Shown: in pieces, positions 1 to 12,153 of the stretch
Position numbering within the stretch: the first letter of the stretch is position 1
How the letters are laid out: every line of letters begins with the position of its first letter
DNA from: a virus
Taxonomy: Duplodnaviria > Heunggongvirae > Uroviricota > Caudoviricetes
Length of the DNA stretch: 25,408 bases
IMG/VR virus record: IMGVR_UViG_2734482775_000005
Strand: one strand, 5' to 3'
The notes under the pieces: generated by a model
The model's input: the letters and a program-made list of their open reading frames with translations, nothing else
Told to the model about the DNA's origin: nothing
The model's database searches: none
Program-made: the position numbers and the translations under genes

Positions 1-1053
1 TTACGGGGTAATGCCAACCGCTGCCGCCACTTTGTCGCCACTTGGCAGCGTTGCCAGAGGATTGAAACGGAGCGCCGTTTCCAGATGATCCGGTGCCAGA
101 TGTGCGTAACGCATAGTCATTTTTATATCGTGGTGTCCGAGAATTTTTTGTAAGGCCAGAATGTTTCCACCCGACATCATGAAGTGCGCTGCAAACGTAT
201 GGCGCAGAACGTGTGTGAGTTGACCGCGAGGGAGCACGATAGACGTTTTTTCCATCACGGATAAAAATTGAAAATAGCAGTCTGTGAAGAAATTGAACCC
301 ATCGAGCGCCATGATCTCTTCGTAAAGCTCTTTACTGATAGGGATGCTTCTGTTTTTCTTCCCCTTCGTTCTGACAAAGGTAATTCGGTATTTGGTCACC
401 TGTGAGCGGGTAAGATTTACGGCTTCACGCCAGCGTGCGCCTGTGCTTAAGCATATCTTAACTACCAGTGCCAGAATTGGGTCCTGACGTTTGCAATCAG
501 CCAGCAATTCAACAATCTGCTCATGGGTAAGCCATGCCATCTCTTTTTCTGCGATGGTGAATTTTCGCATGTTCTCCAGTGGGTTCGGATACGACCATTC
601 GCCCAGACGGGATAGTTCGCTAAAAACACTACTTAGATAGCTTTGCTCCAGGTTAATGGTGACCGGGCTTGCTCCTTTCTTCCATTTCTCGCTGAAGTAG
701 ATCTCGCCTGTCAGGCGTTTATCTCGATAGTGGGCAAACATTTTAGAGGTTAGATCAGTTGCAAGGGGATTGCCCAGAGCGTCAACCATCAGCAGCAATT
801 TGTCATAGACATGCTGCCCAGCAGTCAGTGATTTACCATGTAGTTTGAACCATAGCTCAACCACGTCTTTCAGTGTTCGACGATCCACTGATTCACCTAG
901 CCAGGGCTTTGCTTCGGTTTCTTCCATCGTGTGACGCTCAAAAGCCAGAGCTTCGCCTTTGGTGGCGAATTGTTTACGCACACGACGTCCACTACGTCCG
1001 GCGGGATAACATTCGCACAGCCATTTTCCTGTGGTGAGTTTTCGTACTGCCAT
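1..1053 (-). CDS. int: Tyrosine recombinase / phage integrase (P2 family)
   Basis: 350 aa ORF; C-terminal catalytic region ...HVLRHTFAAHFMMSGGNILALQKILGHHDIKMTMRYAHL (R..H..R..Y pattern); ATG at 1053-1051, stop at 3-1. Confidence 0.9.
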   Translation of the reverse strand: MAVRKLTTGKWLCECYPAGRSGRRVRKQFATKGEALAFERHTMEETEAKPWLGESVDRRTLKDVVELWFKLHGKSLTAGQHVYDKLLLMVDALGNPLATDLTSKMFAHYRDKRLTGEIYFSEKWKKGASPVTINLEQSYLSSVFSELSRLGEWSYPNPLENMRKFTIAEKEMAWLTHEQIVELLADCKRQDPILALVVKICLSTGARWREAVNLTRSQVTKYRITFVRTKGKKNRSIPISKELYEEIMALDGFNFFTDCYFQFLSVMEKTSIVLPRGQLTHVLRHTFAAHFMMSGGNILALQKILGHHDIKMTMRYAHLAPDHLETALRFNPLATLPSGDKVAAAVGITP

Positions 1054-1078
1054 AAAAAAGCCCTCATATCAGAGGGCT
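1054..1078 (-). terminator. Intrinsic terminator-like hairpin between the cargo gene and int
   Basis: 7-bp stem AGCCCTC/GAGGGCT (1059-1065 and 1072-1078) with 6-nt loop; on the minus-strand RNA it is followed by a U-run (complement of A-run 1054-1058) and then directly by the int ATG. Confidence 0.5.
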
Positions 1079-1136
1079 AAATTTAACTGTATATACAACC
1101 AGTAATCAATGTGTGATTGCTATGAAACATACATTG

Positions 1137-2813
1137 CTAAGCAACATGTAGTTCATCGTTGGCGGAAGTGGCTGCTTTGCGTTCCTGCTCAATAGCTAGT
1201 GACTCTCTATATTCTTTCGCCTCTGCAAACATTGTCCAGTGGGCATTGATGTTCATATCTTCAATAACCGATTTAATTTCTTTAATATTTACGTTAAAAA
1301 ACTCTTTTCGTGAGTTAATTTTATTGACCTGCTTTTCGTTGAAGACTTTATGCAGATGATTTTCTAATGACGGTGCATCATCACTATAAATCATCGCATG
1401 AACATCGAACGCAAAAGGAACACTAGCATCCCCAAGTTCACGAACACGATCAAGTGGTTCAAGGCGGCGTGTCATTCCAATTTTATATACATCTTCGCCA
1501 AATGAGCCAATATTGCTAATTATATAAACATGGCCTGATCTAGTTTGTTGAGCCATAGAAATAGCTCGTTGGTTTTTAGCTTCAGCTTCTTCATATTTTA
1601 ACTGTAGTTCAGCTATTTTTTGCTCTAAAGCTAAGCGTTGTTCTTCATTTGCAAGCATAAGCTCTTTCGTCGCTTTATTTATAGCTTGCTGAATAGCTTT
1701 CTCTTCTTTTTCGGCTTCTTTTATCGCTTTTTCATACTCTCTACGAGCTCTTTCCTCTTCACGAAGCTGTTCTTTAATCCTTCTTTGCTCCTCTTTTTCT
1801 TCGAGCATAATTTCATTAACTGCAACTCCCCATTTTAGCTCGTTGAGTCGTGCCTGAAGATAGATGTCACTTATTTTTGCGGATTTAAAAGCAGAGCCAT
1901 TATAATTTACAAGTTGAAATGCATCTTTTATTTCTTGGGAAAGTTTTCCAAAATTGTTGTGTTTGACTTTTGATAAAATACTGTCAACTCTTCCATTGAA
2001 GGCATCCAAAACAAAGTTGATAGCAGTATTACGCCTGTTTTGCTCAACATAATCACACGAAGCTGCTTTATTAGTTTTTATTAATGATTTTGTTAACTCC
2101 CTGGCTTTTTGTAATTCCTTGCCTGCATCTGTAAACTCATAATTTTCTGCCAATTCATCAAGTACACTGCGGTTAGGGATGATCCATTCATCGCCATAAC
2201 CTTCAATTTTATTTTTCATTGATTTGGCAACTGCTTCATATTTTTCTGCAAACTCTTTAGCTTCATATGCTGAACCAGCAATCTCTTTTGCTCTTTCTTC
2301 TGCATCGGAAATAATTTTTACTGCGTTGTCATTAGCATTTGAGATCAGCTCATTTGCTTTACTGTTGGCATTATCAAGACGTTCTTTGGCTTTCAGGCGT
2401 GCATCGCGAGCGTCTTTGGTGATTGCTATAGCTTCGCTATTAGCGTTGCTTATTGTTATCTGAGCTTGATAATTTGCTTCGTTTACTGTCTTAGCAGCCT
2501 TTATTTGGGCTTCTTCTATTTTTTGCCTGGCTATTGAGTCTGCATTTTTTATCTTATTCTCTGCTTCCATCACTGCGCTGTGCAATTCTACGTATTGCCA
2601 TAATGGTGCAGCTCGTCCTTCAAGCTCTGATAGATCTCGTACAGTCTGTGCTAATTCTTCTTGATTTTCTTTCAGTTGGCTGGAAAGAGCTATGTTGTTA
2701 GCCGTCAGGTTATCTATGGCGGTTTTGTGTTCTTTACTTTGCTTAAATAATATTATAGCTAGAACAGGGGCGAGAAATGCTAATAAGAATATAACGATGG
2801 AAAATGAATTCAT
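1137..2813 (-). CDS. Membrane-anchored coiled-coil protein with C-terminal T5orf172/GIY-YIG-like (MUG113-type) domain; DUF4041-like architecture; candidate defence/abortive-infection cargo
   Basis: 558 aa; N-terminal hydrophobic helix MNSFSIVIFLLAFLAPVLAIILF; about 400 aa of K/E/A-rich heptad-like coiled coil; C-terminal motif GHVYIISNIGSFGEDVYKIGMTRRLEPLDRVRELGDASVPFAFDVHAMIY...EFF; AAGGA RBS 8 nt upstream of ATG at 2813; AT-rich relative to phage core. Confidence 0.75.
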   Translation of the reverse strand: MNSFSIVIFLLAFLAPVLAIILFKQSKEHKTAIDNLTANNIALSSQLKENQEELAQTVRDLSELEGRAAPLWQYVELHSAVMEAENKIKNADSIARQKIEEAQIKAAKTVNEANYQAQITISNANSEAIAITKDARDARLKAKERLDNANSKANELISNANDNAVKIISDAEERAKEIAGSAYEAKEFAEKYEAVAKSMKNKIEGYGDEWIIPNRSVLDELAENYEFTDAGKELQKARELTKSLIKTNKAASCDYVEQNRRNTAINFVLDAFNGRVDSILSKVKHNNFGKLSQEIKDAFQLVNYNGSAFKSAKISDIYLQARLNELKWGVAVNEIMLEEKEEQRRIKEQLREEERARREYEKAIKEAEKEEKAIQQAINKATKELMLANEEQRLALEQKIAELQLKYEEAEAKNQRAISMAQQTRSGHVYIISNIGSFGEDVYKIGMTRRLEPLDRVRELGDASVPFAFDVHAMIYSDDAPSLENHLHKVFNEKQVNKINSRKEFFNVNIKEIKSVIEDMNINAHWTMFAEAKEYRESLAIEQERKAATSANDELHVA

Positions 2814-2833
2814 TTTTAAATCCTTTTACTATA

Positions 2834-3430
2834 TCAATTTGAAACTATTGTACTTCTTATACAAGCAACCACTTCAATATCAGAAAATGCACATTCAAAG
2901 CTATTCTCTGTAGTTGTAATTTTAATCATACCTTTTGGAAGCTTTGTGATTTTTCGAATGGAATAGGTTCCGTCGATGTTGATTAACCAGTGCCCATCAA
3001 GTACTTCAGAAAATTTTTGATCACAAATGTATGTGACAAGCCCATCCTGAATAACAATTGGTGATGAAAGATTTGCAGGAAGAAATGATGAATCGAAGAC
3101 ATATGAACCATCTTCAATCATTTTGCCTGCGGTAAGGCGAAACTTGGGAAGCTCTTCTGTGGCTACTGTCAGCGAGCTTTGCTTAAGTCCTTGCCCGGTG
3201 GTTAACCATTTCAGTGAGGTTCCTGTTTCAAGAGCACATTGGATTATCCAGTCTGCAGGAAACGTATCCCGCAAATACCTGTTCGCCAGAGTGCTTTTTG
3301 ATACTTCCAAGTGATCAGCTAAAGCCTGTCGTGTCGTAAAGCCATAAGCTTCGACTAATCGCTCAATCGCAGCCTTACCACCTTTATTGGGATTTATTTT
3401 GATCTCACTTGGGTACTTTGATGTTGACAT
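2834..3430 (-). CDS. cI: CI-type immunity repressor (N-terminal HTH, no recognisable S24 autocleavage motif; phage 186 CI-like)
   Basis: 198 aa; HTH-like segment FTTRQALADHLEVSKSTLANRYL; transcribed divergently from the early lytic operon; sits between int and the Apl/CII genes as in phage 186. Confidence 0.65.
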   Translation of the reverse strand: MSTSKYPSEIKINPNKGGKAAIERLVEAYGFTTRQALADHLEVSKSTLANRYLRDTFPADWIIQCALETGTSLKWLTTGQGLKQSSLTVATEELPKFRLTAGKMIEDGSYVFDSSFLPANLSSPIVIQDGLVTYICDQKFSEVLDGHWLINIDGTYSIRKITKLPKGMIKITTTENSFECAFSDIEVVACIRSTIVSN

Positions 3431-3452
3431 ATCTCTTTTGCGATCCTAGTAT
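3424..3452 (+). promoter_or_regulatory. Early lytic promoter (pR-like), near-consensus sigma70
   Basis: TTGACA (3424-3429), 17-bp spacer, TAGTAT (3447-3452); overlaps the cI start codon; reads toward apl/cII. Confidence 0.55.
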
Positions 3453-3525
3453 CAGTTTTGTCCCCATTTGGGTGCTTGTCACGATTACTACAGGCTCACC
3501 ACAAGCCAATAGGAGATGTTGCATC

Positions 3526-3747
3526 ATGACCCCTAACATTTCAATAACTCTGAATACGCCACATGTCACAATTGAGCGTTATAGCGAACTTACTGGTCTT
3601 TCAATCGACACAATTAACGATATGCTGGCTGACGGTCGCATCCCTCGGCATCGCCTTCGGAAAGACAAGAAAAGAGAAAAGGTGATGATCAACCTTGCTG
3701 CTCTTACCGTTGATGCACTTACTGATTGCAATGTTGTATTCAACTAG
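3526..3747 (+). CDS. Apl/Cox-like excisionase and transcriptional regulator (small HTH protein)
   Basis: 74 aa from ATG 3526 with AGGAG RBS; HTH-like [25 protein letters not shown]; first gene of the rightward early operon. The longer track ORF from 3409 is rejected because it would overlap the promoter and cI start. Confidence 0.6.
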
Positions 3748-3779
3748 TTCCATTTTGGGATACATCAGGGGTGTCGACC

Positions 3780-4289
3780 ATGTTTGATTACCAAGTTTCC
3801 AAACATCCACATTTTGATGAAGCCTGTCGTGCATTCGCACTGCGCCACAACCTGGTGCAACTGGCAGAACGTGCAGGCATGAATGTGCAGATTCTGCGGA
3901 ACAAGCTGAACCCAGCTCAACCTCATTTATTAACCGCACCAGATATCTGGCTACTTACCGATCTGACTGAAGATTCAACGCTGGTAGACGGTTTTCTGGC
4001 ACAGATTCATTGTCTGCCATGTGTACCGATTAATGAGGTGGCAAAAGAGAAACTGCCACATTACGTCATGAGTGCAACCGCAGAGATCGGGCGTGTTGCT
4101 GCAGGTGCGGTATCTGGCGATGTAAAAACCAGTGCAGGTCGTCGTGATGCTATCAGCAGCATTAACTCTGTAACACGACTGATGGCGTTGGCTGCTGTTT
4201 CATTGCAGGCCCGTTTACAGGCTAACCCTGCGATGGCGAGTGCAGTTGATACCGTGACTGGCCTCGGTGCTTCATTCGGTTTGCTGTGA
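3780..4289 (+). CDS. cII: CII-like phage regulatory protein (phage 186 CII-like, 169 aa)
   Basis: ATG 3780 preceded by AGGGGTG RBS; position directly after apl; length matches my recollection of 186 CII. Confidence 0.55.
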
Positions 4290-4296
4290 GGTACTT

Positions 4297-4593
4297 ATGC
4301 TGACGAAAGAACCATCATTTGCATCGCTGCTGGTAAAGCAAAGCCCGGCAATGCACTACGGTCACGGCTGGATCATGGGTGAGGATGGAAAACGCTGGCA
4401 TCCATGTCATTCACAAGATGAATTGCTGTCTGAATTGACCACGAGGAAACGGAGAAAGTCAAAATGTATGCAGCGGAAAGTGAAGTGGTTTATCAGTTTC
4501 GTTACAGAGGGGAGAGTTATTCAGTACCTGAAGATGATTTGCTCTGTTGTTATCCGTCGTTGTCGGGCGATGGCAGTTACTTTTTCACGCTAA
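4297..4593 (+). CDS. Hypothetical early protein (3' extent uncertain; overlaps next ORF out of frame)
   Basis: ATG 4297 with GAGGT RBS overlapping the cII stop; N-terminal half looks protein-like, C-terminal half is R/C/K-rich and low-complexity. Confidence 0.35.
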   Translation: MLTKEPSFASLLVKQSPAMHYGHGWIMGEDGKRWHPCHSQDELLSELTTRKRRKSKCMQRKVKWFISFVTEGRVIQYLKMICSVVIRRCRAMAVTFSR

Positions 4594-5353: not shown

Positions 5354-5580
5354 TGGCTGATGCAATGGATCTCGTACAGCAGCGCGTTGAAGAAGAACGC
5401 CAGCGCCATATCCGTGCTGCCCGTGCCAAAACGCCGGGCGTGTCCCGCGTGCTTTGCATTGAGTGTGAAGCGCCAATTCCGCCAGCACGCCGCCGCGCCA
5501 TTCCAGGTGTGCAGCTTTGCATTACCTGTCAGGAAATCGCAGAGCTGAAAGGCAAACATTACAACGGAGGTGCTGTATGA
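5353..5580 (+). CDS. TraR/DksA-family C4 zinc-finger protein
   Basis: 75 aa; CIECEAPIPPARRRAIPGVQLCITCQ gives CxxC-17-CxxC; GGAG RBS; translationally coupled to flanking genes. Confidence 0.7.
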   Translation: MADAMDLVQQRVEEERQRHIRAARAKTPGVSRVLCIECEAPIPPARRRAIPGVQLCITCQEIAELKGKHYNGGAV

Positions 5581-6434
5581 GCACCATCCTGAAATGGGCG
5601 GGAAATAAAACCGCAATTATGTCCGAACTGAAAAAACACCTTCCTGCTGGCCCGCGACTGGTTGAACCTTTCGCAGGTTCCTGTGCTGTGATGATGGCGA
5701 CGGATTATCCAAGCTATCTGGTTGCGGATATTAATCCTGATTTAATCAACCTCTATAAAAAGGTTGCCGCTGATTGTGAATCGTTTATATCTCGCGCCAG
5801 AGTTTTATTTAAGGAAGCAAACAGGGAGGTGGCTTATTACAACATAAGGCAGGAGTTTAATTACTCAACTGAAATTACTGATTTCATGAAAGCGGTATAT
5901 TTCCTGTATCTCAATCGTCACGGTTACCGTGGTTTATGTCGCTATAACAAGAGCGGGCATTTCAACATTCCGTACGGTAATTATAAAAATCCGTATTTCC
6001 CTGAAAAAGAAATTCGCGCATTTGCAGAGAAAGCCCAGCGGGCAACGTTTATCTGCGCAAGCTTTGATGAAACGCTGGCGATGCTGCAGGTGGGGGATGT
6101 GGTGTATTGCGATCCGCCGTATGACGGTACGTTTTCCGGCTATCACACTGATGGTTTCACTGAAGATGACCAGTATCACCTGGCATCCGTTCTTGAACAT
6201 CGGTCATCAGAAGGACATCCGGTCATTGTTTCTAACAGTGACACATCCCTGATCCGTTCGCTATATCGCAATTTTACTCACCACTACATCAAGGCAAAAC
6301 GCAGCATCGGTGTGGCAGCTGGTGAGAGTAAATCTGCAACAGAAATCATCGCTGTTTCCGGGCCGCGCTGCTGGGTGGGATTTGATCCTTCGCGTGGCGT
6401 GGATAGTTCTGCCGTGTACGGAGTGCGTGCATGA
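5577..6434 (+). CDS. dam: DNA adenine methyltransferase (Dam-like, N6-adenine MTase)
   Basis: N-terminal WAGNK-type motif (LKWAGNK), FAGSCAV AdoMet-binding region, catalytic DPPY motif (CDPPYDGT); ATGA overlap with upstream stop. Confidence 0.85.
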
Positions 6435-9430: not shown

Positions 9431-9565
9431 GAAACGTTGCTGGCGTCTGAACTTGCTTCTGGCGTCAGCAAGGTTGAACAACGAGCCCTTGCGAGGCGTT
9501 AGCTCTGTAGTGCATGTCTATGCCGCATGAGATCGCATGATCGTTTGAGGATCGTTTTTGCTAAG

Positions 9566-9590
9566 GCCCGCCAGAACTGGCGGGCTTTTG
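9566..9590 (+). terminator. Rho-independent terminator ending the SOS operon
   Basis: GCCCGCCAG-AA-CTGGCGGGC stem-loop followed by TTTTG. Confidence 0.7.
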
Positions 9591-9788
9591 CGTAGATCAT
9601 GCAGGTGCATGAAAACCACTACATAAAGCGGGCAGGCGTGGCGGGGATACGAGCGCGCGCCCGGTAGTTTAAATATAAAGTTATCAAAAGATGTTTTGAT
9701 GGAACTTTGTTATGGTTAATGTGTCAACCAAGATGTAAACTATATTGAAAAGAACGTTATTGATGGATTTTAAAATTAGGAGGGCGAC

Positions 9789-10595
9789 ATGAGTGACAGC
9801 AATCGCATGTCCAATGCACCCGTATACTATGTGCTGGCGCAAGTTAAGTTTACGCCTATCAAGGCGATGAAAAAGTATGTCGATGACATTCAGGAAGCAT
9901 TGCGTTTAAGGGGCTATCCACTCTTTGAAAGAAGAGAGGCAATGCAAATGGTGTTTGATGTTAATACGCCCGGTGAATCGCCTCAGCCATCTTTTGAAAT
10001 GGTCCAGCAGTGGTATATGTCTGACATCACTAAGACTTCAGGTTTTGTCTTGGGTAACGATTTTATTACTTTCCAGACGACTGATTACAAAGAACATGAA
10101 CCGTTCTTTAAAGCATTGATGGAAGGATTGTCTGTCGTAATAGAACATGCTAACCCAGCCCTTTTGACAAGACTTGGTTTGAGGTATCTGGATGCCGTAA
10201 TACCTAGTGAGGGTGAAAAGATTGAGCAGTACCTTTGCAATGGCTTACATGGTGTAGATTTGGATTTATCTCCGATACAATCGGTTAACGAGATGGTTTT
10301 CCAAACAAATGTTGGTCCTGTTATAAGTACTGGCTTTTTAGTAACTCGTTTGCATAAGATGTTTGGTCAGTTGAGTTTTCCTCCAGATATCTTGCCCTTT
10401 GGGGTTGAAATGCTTGAGCGGTTCAGGAGCGACAAGGCTCTTTGGCATGGGATTATTGATACAGACCATTATGTTGAAGGAAACATGCCGCCAGAAATAG
10501 ATTCAATTGAGCAACAGTTCAATTCACTACATGGTGTTGTAAAGGAAAGCTTTAATAAAATGGTATCCCAACATGCCATTAATAGGTGGGTATAA
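9789..10595 (+). CDS. Cargo gene 1 of three-gene operon: unknown-function protein (268 aa)
   Basis: AGGAGGG RBS before ATG 9789; no family assigned with confidence (N-terminal NAPVYYVLAQVKF is, very tentatively, reminiscent of TIGR04255-type uncharacterised proteins); AT-rich versus phage core. Confidence 0.75.
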   Translation: MSDSNRMSNAPVYYVLAQVKFTPIKAMKKYVDDIQEALRLRGYPLFERREAMQMVFDVNTPGESPQPSFEMVQQWYMSDITKTSGFVLGNDFITFQTTDYKEHEPFFKALMEGLSVVIEHANPALLTRLGLRYLDAVIPSEGEKIEQYLCNGLHGVDLDLSPIQSVNEMVFQTNVGPVISTGFLVTRLHKMFGQLSFPPDILPFGVEMLERFRSDKALWHGIIDTDHYVEGNMPPEIDSIEQQFNSLHGVVKESFNKMVSQHAINRWV

Positions 10596-10612
10596 CACCG
10601 GGGAGGTGTAAT

Positions 10613-11254
10613 ATGCGTCAATCCATGACTGGTAGTTGCTATGGGACTCCTGGTTTAGCTCCTATTGCTGGAGCGTTATTTGTTGCAACCTCTATGTTCC
10701 TGAGTGGAACAGGAGCGAGCTATTCTGTGAAGGATGTAAACCAGTGGCGTGGTTTTGTACAACCTAAAGTCCATTTTGGGTTATCTAAACTTGAAAATCA
10801 TGGGGATACAGATAATGACCCTGTTGATATCAGGACAATTTCAGAACATTTAAGTAATGTTAGGGATACTCTTTCTCCATCAATGTCAGAACTGGCTAAA
10901 GATTTGGGTATTACTAGGCAAGCATTATACAAATGGTTATCCGGTGACAGTCAGCCTGATGATATTGGGAAAGCTGGTTACATCATTGAACTCAGTAGAT
11001 TAGCCGATCGCTTTAACAAAGCAGGAGTAGAAAATGCTAAGTTGATGTCAAAAATGAAAGCGTTTGACGGCTTATCTATTATTGATTTGATTAAGCGAGG
11101 CGATGACTGGAAGTCGTCTGTGAATCTCTTAATCGATGAAGCTCGCCAGCTTAAAATTGCAGGTGTAAAAGCGAATTTAACTGGGAGCAAAAGCACGCCA
11201 ACTGACGGGTGGATGTCGTCTGTTTCTATACCTGGTTCAGGAATGAAGGAGTAG
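10613..11254 (+). CDS. Cargo gene 2: protein with central XRE-type helix-turn-helix and an N-terminal hydrophobic segment
   Basis: ATG 10613 with GGGAGG RBS, 17 bp after gene 1 stop; HTH-like MSELAKDLGITRQALYKWLSGDSQP; N-terminal GLAPIAGALFVATSMFLSGTGA is possibly a membrane helix. Confidence 0.7.
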   Translation: MRQSMTGSCYGTPGLAPIAGALFVATSMFLSGTGASYSVKDVNQWRGFVQPKVHFGLSKLENHGDTDNDPVDIRTISEHLSNVRDTLSPSMSELAKDLGITRQALYKWLSGDSQPDDIGKAGYIIELSRLADRFNKAGVENAKLMSKMKAFDGLSIIDLIKRGDDWKSSVNLLIDEARQLKIAGVKANLTGSKSTPTDGWMSSVSIPGSGMKE

Positions 11255-11264
11255 ATAGTCATTT

Positions 11265-12104
11265 ATGGTTGATATTGCTACAGCATGGCGCCAAGGCCAG
11301 GTTCTTAGGCATGAGGATGCAGTTTCTTTGGGTATTCTTACCGAAGAGGAAATAGGCGTTAAAGTTGTCGTGATCAGTCATGATTGTGACTTGCAAAGCT
11401 CTTCTGAACCCAGCGTTGAGCTTATTGCTGGCCCTCTCATTAAGGGGGCCAGCAATTATGCACGTGCTAAACATCCCAGAGTTCTGCATTTGCATTTAGA
11501 GCAAGCGCGTGACGCGAATCAAAATGCAATTGAACTAAGACATGACAACAAATTTCGTATTGATAAAGAACGTTTCACGTGTGTGGGATGTGACCCTACT
11601 TGCCAAATATCCCCTGAGGAAAAGCAAGGTTTAAAACAATGGCTTGCTGCCCGCTATGGGCGACCTGCCTTTCCTGATGTTTTTGAGAGTAGGCTAAGAG
11701 CTTTCGACACAAAGAAATTTAGATTCGAAAAACAACTCGCAAAGATAATTAGCAAACATTCAGTCTATTTGATAGGTGTATTCTTTGATTTAGGCGAAGA
11801 TCGTTTCAATGATTTAGAGGAAGGTGTACCTTACGAACTGAATATTCATCTTGTCTATGATTCTATAGATGGTGGGCCGGATGCAAGAGCAGAGGCAGAG
11901 CAGGCGGCAACACAAATTGAAGAGTTCTTTGTAACGTACCATGGTGATGCGTCTGAAAGTGAACTCATTGCGCTTATGTCTTGTAACGCAGTTCCTGACG
12001 TTGAATTCAGTCTGTATGCGTTACGGCGAATGGACCAGTGGCGGGTTGAGTACATTAGTCTACAAGGTGATGACGTGGGTGATTACATCAACCCAGCCAT
12101 CTAA
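11265..12104 (+). CDS. Cargo gene 3: unknown-function protein (279 aa)
   Basis: ATG 11265 ten bp after gene 2 stop with AAGGAG upstream; no recognisable domain by eye; ends at the bidirectional terminator. Confidence 0.75.
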   Translation: MVDIATAWRQGQVLRHEDAVSLGILTEEEIGVKVVVISHDCDLQSSSEPSVELIAGPLIKGASNYARAKHPRVLHLHLEQARDANQNAIELRHDNKFRIDKERFTCVGCDPTCQISPEEKQGLKQWLAARYGRPAFPDVFESRLRAFDTKKFRFEKQLAKIISKHSVYLIGVFFDLGEDRFNDLEEGVPYELNIHLVYDSIDGGPDARAEAEQAATQIEEFFVTYHGDASESELIALMSCNAVPDVEFSLYALRRMDQWRVEYISLQGDDVGDYINPAI

Positions 12105-12110
12105 TATATT

Positions 12111-12153
12111 AAAAAGTACTGTGTGTTCAATTTGAACAAACAGTACATTTATT
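12111..12153. terminator. Bidirectional intrinsic terminator between convergent cargo gene 3 and portal gene Q
   Basis: Near-perfect 15-bp inverted repeat GTACTGTGTGTTCAA / TTGAACAAACAGTAC (one mismatch) flanked by AAAAA on the left and ATTTATT on the right. Confidence 0.55.

Follow-up and report, generated by a model that had tools for sequence, protein, structure and literature searches.

The 558-aa protein encoded between the integrase and repressor genes of a P2/186-like prophage, on the 25,408-nt stretch of viral DNA analysed here as a whole (IMG/VR record IMGVR_UViG_2734482775_000005; hereafter the window), very probably belongs to the SNIPE (PD-λ-1) anti-phage family, whose systems consist of one protein each, and its gene is accessory cargo of the lysogenic operon. 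The system itself is already known: the family was discovered in 2022 as PD-λ-1 by Vassallo et al. (PMC9519451), and its mechanism was solved in 2026 by Saxton et al. in Nature, who renamed it SNIPE (PMC13190303). The reference protein, RCP76574.1 of E. coli ECOR26 (500 aa; PMC9519451; PMC13190303), is a nuclease of the inner membrane by which the DNA of siphoviruses is cut while being injected, in a direct and not an abortive form of defence (PMC13190303). The experiments reported for it comprise membrane localisation, PhoA/LacZ topology and the cutting of radiolabelled phage DNA as it is injected; it associates with ManYZ and with the tape measure protein, and its range is confined to siphoviruses (PMC13190303).

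With respect to family membership, the open reading frame lies between int and cI as the sequence-only reading of this DNA had placed it (Table 1), and the same frame is called by RefSeq in an identical segment of E. coli JML285, where the product, WP_001084071.1, bears the name 'SNIPE associated domain-containing protein'. In PADLOC the protein matches the PD-Lambda-1 profile PDLC03976 (E = 1.3e-119; residues 107-550 of the protein against positions 37-481 of the 491 in the profile) and the second profile of that system, PDLC03977 (E = 5e-116), the two together spanning residues 105-551; apart from these, only PDC-S57 and, marginally, the coiled coil of LmuB were matched. Three Pfam families were found, all past their gathering thresholds, namely DUF4041 (PF13250, renamed 'SNIPE' in newer Pfam; residues 267-322, E = 3.1e-12, 46.6 bits as compared with a 27-bit cut-off), T5orf172 (residues 427-520, E = 2.3e-16) and MUG113 (residues 443-520, E = 1.2e-19), so that both domains proposed earlier from the letters, DUF4041 and T5orf172, were recovered by profile search. 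The C-terminal motifs quoted at that time could likewise all be located, GHVYIISN at residue 427, VYKIGMT at 442, SVPF at 464 and RKEFF at 502, and the VYI...YKIG...R...E pattern is invariant in a 32-sequence alignment of the subfamily. The Pfam matches to both families and this conserved motif pattern would place the domain in the T5orf172/MUG113 branch of the GIY-YIG superfamily, with a putative α/β fold and conserved Tyr, Tyr, Arg and Glu; the protein differs from that superfamily in the fusion of the nuclease to a membrane anchor and to DUF4041. A sequence search of the PDB returned no relative of solved structure.

Table 1. Features of the SNIPE-family gene and its surroundings in the 25,408-nt window
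Feature	Position	Strand	Basis
Tyrosine integrase gene int, 350 aa, downstream gene of the lysogenic operon	1..1053	-	Pfam Int_N and Phage_integrase; operon from phage 186 annotation
Terminator-like hairpin and T-run, adjoining the int ATG	1054..1078	-	Hairpin 1078..1059, AGCCCTC-tgatat-GAGGGCT, then TTTTT; scan and sequence
SNIPE / PD-λ-1 family gene, 558 aa	1137..2813	-	Open reading frame with ATG start; PADLOC, Pfam, BLASTP, RefSeq name
GIY-YIG-type nuclease codons (T5orf172/MUG113, residues 427-520)	1254..1535	-	Pfam; 73% identity to reference nuclease
E484 codon, counterpart of SNIPE catalytic E414	1362..1364	-	Pairwise mapping; invariant in 32-sequence alignment
Charged E/K/R-rich linker helix codons (residues 326-424)	1542..1838	-	77% A/E/K/Q/R/L; AF2 helix H317-424; 47% identity to reference linker
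DUF4041 core codons (residues 267-322)	1848..2015	-	Pfam PF13250; 30% identity to reference DUF4041
N-terminal helical stalk codons (residues 25-203)	2205..2741	-	AF2 helices; periodicity; weak DivIVA and ATP-synthase-b matches
Predicted N-terminal transmembrane helix codons (residues 4-23)	2745..2804	-	Kyte-Doolittle; KQSKEHK after it
Shine-Dalgarno sequence AAGGA, 7 nt before the ATG of the SNIPE gene	2821..2825	-	Sequence reading; within the 20 nt that follow the cI stop
186-type cI repressor allele, 198 aa	2834..3430	-	Pfam Phage_CI_repr and Phage_CI_C

For comparison with the characterised system, a 500-aa protein of lambdoid prophages (L005/L006) served as proxy, which is valid because it contains every one of the nine residues that the SNIPE paper names. 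In a BLASTP alignment of 293 aa (residues 265-555; E = 9e-77) the 558-aa protein is 49% identical to it, and in hhalign 50% (probability 100%, E = 1.9e-59). Both proteins are built from the same parts in the same order, i.e., transmembrane helix, helical stalk, DUF4041, charged linker helix, GIY-YIG nuclease and short tail, and both are encoded by a single gene on a temperate prophage. The nuclease domains are 73% identical, and the catalytic glutamate is conserved, E414 of the reference corresponding to E484; in the reference, the exchange E414A abolishes defence as well as the toxicity of the ΔTM form (PMC13190303). The domain architecture, the membership in the family and the conservation of the catalytic residue are thereby established. 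The N-terminal half, in contrast, is divergent: the first approximately 264 residues could not be aligned with the reference N-terminus by either BLASTP or hhalign, the protein carries some 70 additional N-terminal residues (558 versus 500 aa) by which both domains are shifted, and DUF4041 is just 30% identical, with differing residues at the positions that contact the tape measure protein (E223→S292, W257→K327 and N250→Q320). Because of the different stalk and the different contact residues, specificity, i.e., which siphoviruses are recognised and whether through ManYZ or another entry factor, would be expected to differ, and the siphovirus and ManYZ details may therefore not transfer to the 558-aa protein. 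The accession WP_001084071 does not occur in the accessible part of the supplementary material of the SNIPE paper, whose set comprises 474 homologues.

Residues 4-23 (FSIVIFLLAFLAPVLAIILF) form the sole hydrophobic segment above 1.6, with a Kyte-Doolittle maximum of 2.99 over 19 residues, in agreement with the single N-terminal transmembrane helix postulated earlier. By the positive-inside rule, the KQSKEHK that follows predicts that the N-terminus faces outwards and the remainder the cytoplasm. Of 120 close homologues, 119 retain the helix, and a single-pass helix is also found in the reference protein and in 59% of homologues. An AF2 model, computed from the 32-sequence alignment with all available homologues at least 81% identical, gives three long helices (H2-67, H71-203 and H317-424); the model is of low confidence (mean pLDDT 53, pTM 0.23, globular domains including the nuclease below 50), and its secondary structure alone was used. 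The very long coiled coil of the sequence-only reading withstood closer inspection in part. In the stalk (residues 25-203) hydrophobicity recurs every 3.65 residues in a hendecad-like manner, a periodicity exceeded by 0.3% of shuffled sequences (p ≈ 0.003), whereas a heptad periodicity in the linker (residues 317-424) was not significant (p = 0.19), so that the evidence speaks for a coiled coil in the stalk, whereas in the linker it is unproven. The weak matches of the N-terminal region to DivIVA and ATP-synthase b correspond to the N-termini resembling these same two proteins that were described among membrane-anchored SNIPE homologues (PMC13190303). While a tethered GIY-YIG-type effector had been recognised correctly, the element holding it at the membrane is the predicted transmembrane helix and not the stalk, which is a variable adapter or spacer.

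The gene has a G + C content of 37.4% as compared to 50.7% for the window, of which the lowest-GC stretch of 1677 nt falls within it; the marked AT-richness noted before is thus evident. It follows the cI stop codon by 20 nt and has its own Shine-Dalgarno sequence. A scan for σ70-like promoters found none between cI and the SNIPE gene, and yielded only pR on the plus strand and one weak site in the 3' end of the gene, although pL itself is missed by this simple consensus scan; a dedicated promoter is not supported by these sequence features. As cI and int are annotated as one operon in phage 186, this arrangement makes expression from the lysogenic transcript, co-transcribed with cI, plausible. 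A terminator-like hairpin does follow the gene, as had been stated, but it is part of a leader of about 65 nt before int that is common to related prophages carrying other cargo or none, its T-run leads up to and into the ATG of int, and for these reasons it does not count as a terminator specific to the gene; the GAGGG of its 3' arm is also the only Shine-Dalgarno-like sequence available to int. The backbone is shared with prophages carrying other cargo up to position 1120 or so, and homology breaks at about position 1121. A repeat search detected neither direct nor inverted repeats flanking the cargo that would point to an insertion mechanism, no Rfam family was matched anywhere in the window, and PADLOC matched none of the three genes in the window's other accessory locus.

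Comparison with related genomes shows that the gene is accessory. It is present in 164-165 of 1,113 E. coli genomes having this integrase (about 15%) and absent from phage 186, where there is no cargo and cI abuts int, so that it is not universally conserved at this junction, in line with the earlier proposal of an inserted single-gene, prophage-borne anti-phage function, which membership in the SNIPE family supports by homology. Besides SNIPE, the slot between int and cI can be occupied by a KAP NTPase with a match to PDC-S20, a defence candidate (E = 1.3e-173), a 323-aa protein of no assigned family or a 63-aa ORF. Among E. coli genomes, 163 contain the 198-aa cI allele and 165 the SNIPE gene, which was found at a single place in each; the complete arrangement is present in 164, i.e., in all but one of the 165 copies; the order cI(198)-SNIPE(558)-int also occurs in contigs encoding Klebsiella- and Citrobacter-type homologues. 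Accessory status and genetic linkage to one cI allele are hence established alongside the conserved transmembrane helix. About 3% of complete E. coli genomes carry this SNIPE subtype, close homologues are named from Klebsiella, Citrobacter, Salmonella and Enterobacter, and homologues occur in a scattered fashion among phages from many phyla.

The region between int and cI or the primase gene has been reported as a minor defence hotspot of P2-related phages, and the locus resembles the defence hotspots of P2-like prophages (PMC9122126; PMC9519451; PMC13586616) in that a variable, AT-rich slot within a conserved backbone holds different defence genes in different strains. However, it is neither of the classical hotspots of E. 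coli P2, which lie between gpA and the portal gene and at Z/fun within the tail genes, and in contrast to these the cargo here forms part of the lysogenic operon and is passed on along with a particular cI allele. The near-identical copies of the proxy SNIPE (L005/L006) also differ in setting, residing in lambdoid prophages between replication and nin genes, while the 558-aa gene sits in the cI-int operon of a P2/186-like myovirus prophage.

By homology with E. coli SNIPE, the protein would be a constitutively made nuclease kept off the chromosome. At the site of injection, its cytoplasmic DUF4041 domain would bind both DNA and the infecting siphovirus's tape measure protein, and the C-terminal GIY-YIG nuclease, with E484 as putative catalytic glutamate, would cut the entering phage genome; the infected lysogen would survive, and defence would thus be direct and not abortive. 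The carrier prophage is itself a myovirus, a class outside the targets of the characterised SNIPE. Anti-phage activity, target range, topology and any host partner are properties that we infer for the 558-aa protein. Other systems, namely Zorya, Kiwa and superinfection-exclusion proteins of phages such as SieA of P22 or Imm of T4, likewise operate at the inner membrane, upon genome injection or directly thereafter (compared in PMC13190303) and, when prophage-encoded, also shield the lysogen from superinfection. By the PADLOC search, none of them is related in sequence to the 558-aa protein, and SNIPE differs from such envelope- or injection-stage defences in being a single polypeptide with its own nuclease that recognises the tape measure protein and not a perturbation of the membrane.

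The sequence-only reading had left the choice between abortive infection and exclusion, of which exclusion fits, whereas abortive infection is at odds with the characterised homologue: infected cells protected by SNIPE survive and grow at high MOI, unlike those with the abortive-infection control PD-λ-3 (PMC13190303). That infection would set free or activate the tethered nuclease, which would then degrade host and phage DNA alike and kill the cell, is hence an unlikely course of events, even though high toxicity and cutting of the chromosome are seen with the ΔTM form of the reference (PMC13190303), which reveals a potential for suicide, and the divergent N-terminal half could in principle alter regulation. 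The near-universal retention of the anchor among close homologues argues against such a release, as does the lack of neighbouring genes for a protease, a sensor or a release module. Less probable still, and indeed very improbable, is a role outside defence, either as a selfish or mobile homing-type GIY-YIG endonuclease or as a nuclease of the lytic cycle of the prophage serving, e.g., host-DNA degradation. GIY-YIG and T5orf172 domains are known from homing endonucleases and phage regulators, and an AT-rich, horizontally acquired cargo with homologues scattered among phages would be in keeping with this. However, the full-length architecture fits the defence family end to end in PADLOC, the gene belongs to the lysogenic and not the lytic operon, flanking repeats or target-site signatures were not found, and a single site per genome with a stable link to one cI allele (164 of 165 copies) points the other way.

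The least credible of the alternatives, to be given practically no weight, is a structural or SMC-like 'chromosome segregation ATPase' or a subunit H of the V-ATPase. The former name is used in the records of phages KP12 and vB_EcoM-813R9 and the latter is the JGI name for some homologues, and the weak coiled-coil-type matches to DivIVA and ATP-synthase b might seem to agree with them. Yet such matches reflect low-complexity coiled-coil likeness, reaching 24.5 bits against a cut-off of 260 bits, and the protein was found to have no Walker A motif ([AG]xxxxGK[ST]) and no SMC, AAA or ATPase domain of Pfam; both names are therefore rejected.

Within the SNIPE family, it is possible, although the balance tips somewhat against it, that the 558-aa, cI-linked form represents a functionally distinct subtype, which would address another inner-membrane entry factor or another clade of tape measure proteins than ManYZ and λ, respectively, and in which defence would be coupled to prophage immunity and exchanged with it as one 'immunity plus defence' cassette. 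Distinct targeting would be suggested by the unrelated hendecad stalk, longer by about 70 residues, together with the altered surface of DUF4041, and the coupling to immunity by the position between cI and int and by the inheritance together with one cI allele in Escherichia, Klebsiella and Citrobacter alike.

In summary, raw sequence allowed a correct reading of how a defence system is built whose mechanism did not appear in print until 2026. The biological gain is modest and consists of a divergent SNIPE subtype that P2/186-like prophages of Enterobacteriaceae commonly carry, that is tied to a single immunity allele, and whose carriage helps to predict how resistant such lysogens are to siphoviruses, e.g., in phage therapy.

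The 558-codon ORF at 1137..2813 (minus strand) is intact and, as the sequence-only reading had placed it, lies at the junction between int and the gene for a 186-type CI repressor; beyond cI, the opposite strand carries an apl-like gene, cII (CP76) and fil as well as replication and late genes of P2 type. The gene was described there as AT-rich, which is borne out by a G + C content of 37.4% against 50.7% for the window, whose lowest-GC stretch of 1677 nt falls inside it. The 3' half of cI is also low in G + C (34%). The quoted sequence motifs are all found in place, and the proposed N-terminal transmembrane helix corresponds to residues 4-23, the one hydrophobic segment of the protein (19-residue Kyte-Doolittle maximum of 2.99). 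From the KQSKEHK that comes after it, a single-pass anchor with the N-terminus out and the C-terminus in is predicted. Likewise, DUF4041 (PF13250; residues 267-322, E = 3e-12) and the T5orf172-like C-terminus (residues 427-520, E = 2e-16) were recovered by Pfam profile search together with MUG113 (residues 443-520, E = 1e-19), all above the gathering cut-off. Of the long coiled coil, only the N-terminal stalk could be substantiated, having a hendecad-like hydrophobic periodicity of 3.65 residues (p ≈ 0.003 versus shuffles), whereas the periodicity test gave no significant heptad signal in the E/K/R-rich linker, which may form a single charged helix. In an AF2 model of low confidence (mean pLDDT 53), helices are predicted at 2-67, 71-203 and 317-424, while residues 215-302 form a small bundle of helices and residues 427-528 a β/α domain.

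With respect to family membership, the two PD-Lambda-1 profiles of PADLOC matched the protein over nearly their whole length (E = 1.3e-119 and 5e-116). PD-λ-1 (RCP76574.1, 500 aa; DUF4041 at 197-252, T5orf172 at 357-448) was discovered in E. coli ECOR26 by functional selection (PMC9519451), and its present name, SNIPE, dates from a mechanistic study (PMC13190303). Since a 500-aa E. coli protein recovered from lambdoid prophages (L005/L006) has all nine residues named in the latter study (E223, N250, L253, W257, E264, K305, I308, T319, E414), it was used as the SNIPE reference. The two proteins are 49% identical over residues 265-555 (E = 9e-77; hhalign: 50%, E = 1.9e-59), identity being highest in the nuclease (73%), lower in the linker (47%) and lowest in DUF4041 (30%), and the counterpart of the catalytic E414 is E484, a residue invariant in 32 homologues. 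The 558-aa protein thus has the architecture and the catalytic residue of SNIPE. However, its first ~264 residues cannot be aligned with the reference and its two domains are offset by 70 residues; therefore, its membrane-proximal stalk is longer and unrelated. This stalk has weak DivIVA and ATP-synthase-b matches, and N-terminal regions of that class have already been tabulated for TM-bearing SNIPE homologues (PMC13190303).

In public annotation this exact gene is already labelled: in the identical segment of E. coli JML285 its RefSeq product name is 'SNIPE associated domain-containing protein'. PF13250 is now called 'SNIPE' in Pfam, and the PhiR26_1 phage copy is annotated 'PD-lambda-1'. The family, its defence role and mechanism, the variability of the N-terminus and this type of hotspot are likewise all published. 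The label 'chromosome segregation ATPase' carried by several homologues (OM835953.1 of KP12, ON470620.1 of vB_EcoM-813R9, KP836356.2, OZ018341.1 and MW221967.1) is a coiled-coil artefact, the protein having neither a Walker A motif nor an ATPase domain, as is the JGI name 'vacuolar-type H+-ATPase subunit H' for some others. The window is 100% identical to the JML285 segment over 1-4300; beyond this point ORF coordinates drift (e.g., 9789 versus an expected 9795), and the prophage is therefore close to that of JML285 but not the same one.

The SNIPE gene is accessory. The check proposed in the sequence-only reading showed that many relatives lack it at the same junction: the integrase type of the window occurs in 1,113 complete E. 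coli genomes, of which only 164-165 have the gene, and it is missing in phage 186. There, cI directly adjoins int in the lysogenic operon, annotated as being under the control of pL and pE, and it is into this operon that about 1.8 kb are inserted in the window prophage. As the gene starts 20 nt past the cI stop, is preceded by an AAGGA Shine-Dalgarno sequence, and no promoter-like site was found between the two genes by promoter scan, it is likely co-transcribed with cI in the lysogen. Among complete E. coli genomes, the cI allele is present in 163, the SNIPE gene in 165 and the whole arrangement in 164, so that the allele is essentially always accompanied by SNIPE. The order cI (198 aa)-20 nt-SNIPE (558 aa)-82 nt-int also recurs in Klebsiella- and Citrobacter-type homologue contigs at other chromosomal sites. 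Therefore, the cI allele and the defence gene behave as one exchangeable module.

In strains with alternative cargo the prophage is likewise integrated beside rcdA, and each cargo is paired with a cI of other length (191, 289 and 189 aa). One occupant, a KAP P-loop NTPase, matches PifA and QatA as well, though less strongly than PDC-S20. Two hotspots were reported previously: cI-integrase, in Vibrio phages related to P2, and integrase-primase, with 8% of P2 systems. Within the window, the region from the replication endonuclease gene gpA to the portal gene (9432-12148), which is the classical P2 defence hotspot #1, holds a three-gene cargo of lower G + C content (42.6%), for which PADLOC gave no match and which is a candidate defence or accessory system. 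At the DNA adenine methylase locus, phage 186 has other non-essential ORFs; the methylase is also found in the Citrobacter-type contigs and is absent from the Klebsiella-type ones.

Features flanking the SNIPE gene, other cargo of the window and alternative occupants of the int-cI slot
Feature	Coordinates	Strand	Remark
Tyrosine integrase (int), complete	1..1053	-	flanks SNIPE gene
186-type CI repressor (cI), 198 aa	2834..3430	-	flanks SNIPE gene
DNA adenine methylase	5517-6434	+	early operon, just upstream of replication endonuclease
TIGR04255-family protein	9789-10595	+	three-gene cargo; E = 3.9e-47
HTH protein	10586-11254	+	three-gene cargo
279-aa protein without family	11265-12104	+	three-gene cargo
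KAP P-loop NTPase, 443 aa	L002 (E. coli TUM9803):1987-3318		PADLOC defence candidate PDC-S20, E = 1.3e-173
323-aa unknown protein	L003 (CFT073):1993-2964		sub-threshold DUF2207_C match only
63-aa ORF	L004 (S40):1742-1933		sole occupant of slot

The gene had also been credited with its own terminator, which does not hold. The terminator-like hairpin downstream of it (1078..1059, minus strand) belongs to a ~65-nt int leader that is common to related prophages, whether they have different cargo or no cargo at all, and homology with these breaks only at about 1121. Its T-run, moreover, reaches the int ATG. The hairpin is therefore part of the backbone. Together with the T-run it spans 1054-1078 (minus strand); its 3' arm, GAGGG, is the sole Shine-Dalgarno-like sequence for int, and relatives with different cargo have a degenerate version of the hairpin in this position. 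It could act on int either by attenuating the transcription that enters the gene or by masking its ribosome-binding site.

An abortive-infection function, one option of the sequence-only reading, is disfavoured, because cells infected in the presence of the characterised homologue survive (PMC13190303) and the transmembrane anchor is conserved among homologues. A homing or selfish endonuclease is disfavoured as well, given that the architecture matches the defence family over its full length, that the gene sits in a lysogenic operon at a single conserved location, and that a repeat search found no flanking signatures.

As a SNIPE protein, the 558-aa form would by homology share the mechanism of the reference, from which its activity, topology and targets are predicted. 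The reference requires DUF4041 and E414, cuts radiolabelled phage DNA during injection, associates with ManYZ and the λ tape measure protein, contacts the Bas14 tape measure protein via DUF4041, and acts on siphoviruses only; without its transmembrane helix it becomes a toxin cutting the chromosome (PMC13190303). Because of this toxicity, a form 99% identical to the window protein (P0075, 477 aa; a cluster of 164 member sequences), which is annotated as beginning at M82 of that protein and so lacks the helix, probably reflects wrongly called starts or alleles that have been disrupted.

In contrast to the reference, the tape-measure-tuning residues E223, W257 and N250 are replaced by S292, K327 and Q320, and since the stalk is also unrelated, phage range or host partner would be expected to differ. 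That the 558-aa, cI-linked form is a subtype with its own specificity, and that its place inside the lysogenic operon has a bearing on its function, is a tentative and, in our view, somewhat doubtful proposal. Proteins of Synechococcus phages (PP438427.1, OM868080.1) and Marinitoga viruses (KP836356.2, OZ018341.1) are 53-55% identical over 72-87% of its length and, over the N-terminal part, nearer to it than E. coli lambdoid SNIPE. Such similarity suggests that the long-stalk subtype has spread widely by horizontal transfer. The gene is carried here by a prophage of a P2/186-like myovirus and is also present in the isolated phages KP12 and vB_EcoM-813R9; as myoviruses are not targeted by the reference (PMC13190303), SNIPE should be a cargo that does not interfere with its carrier's own kind.
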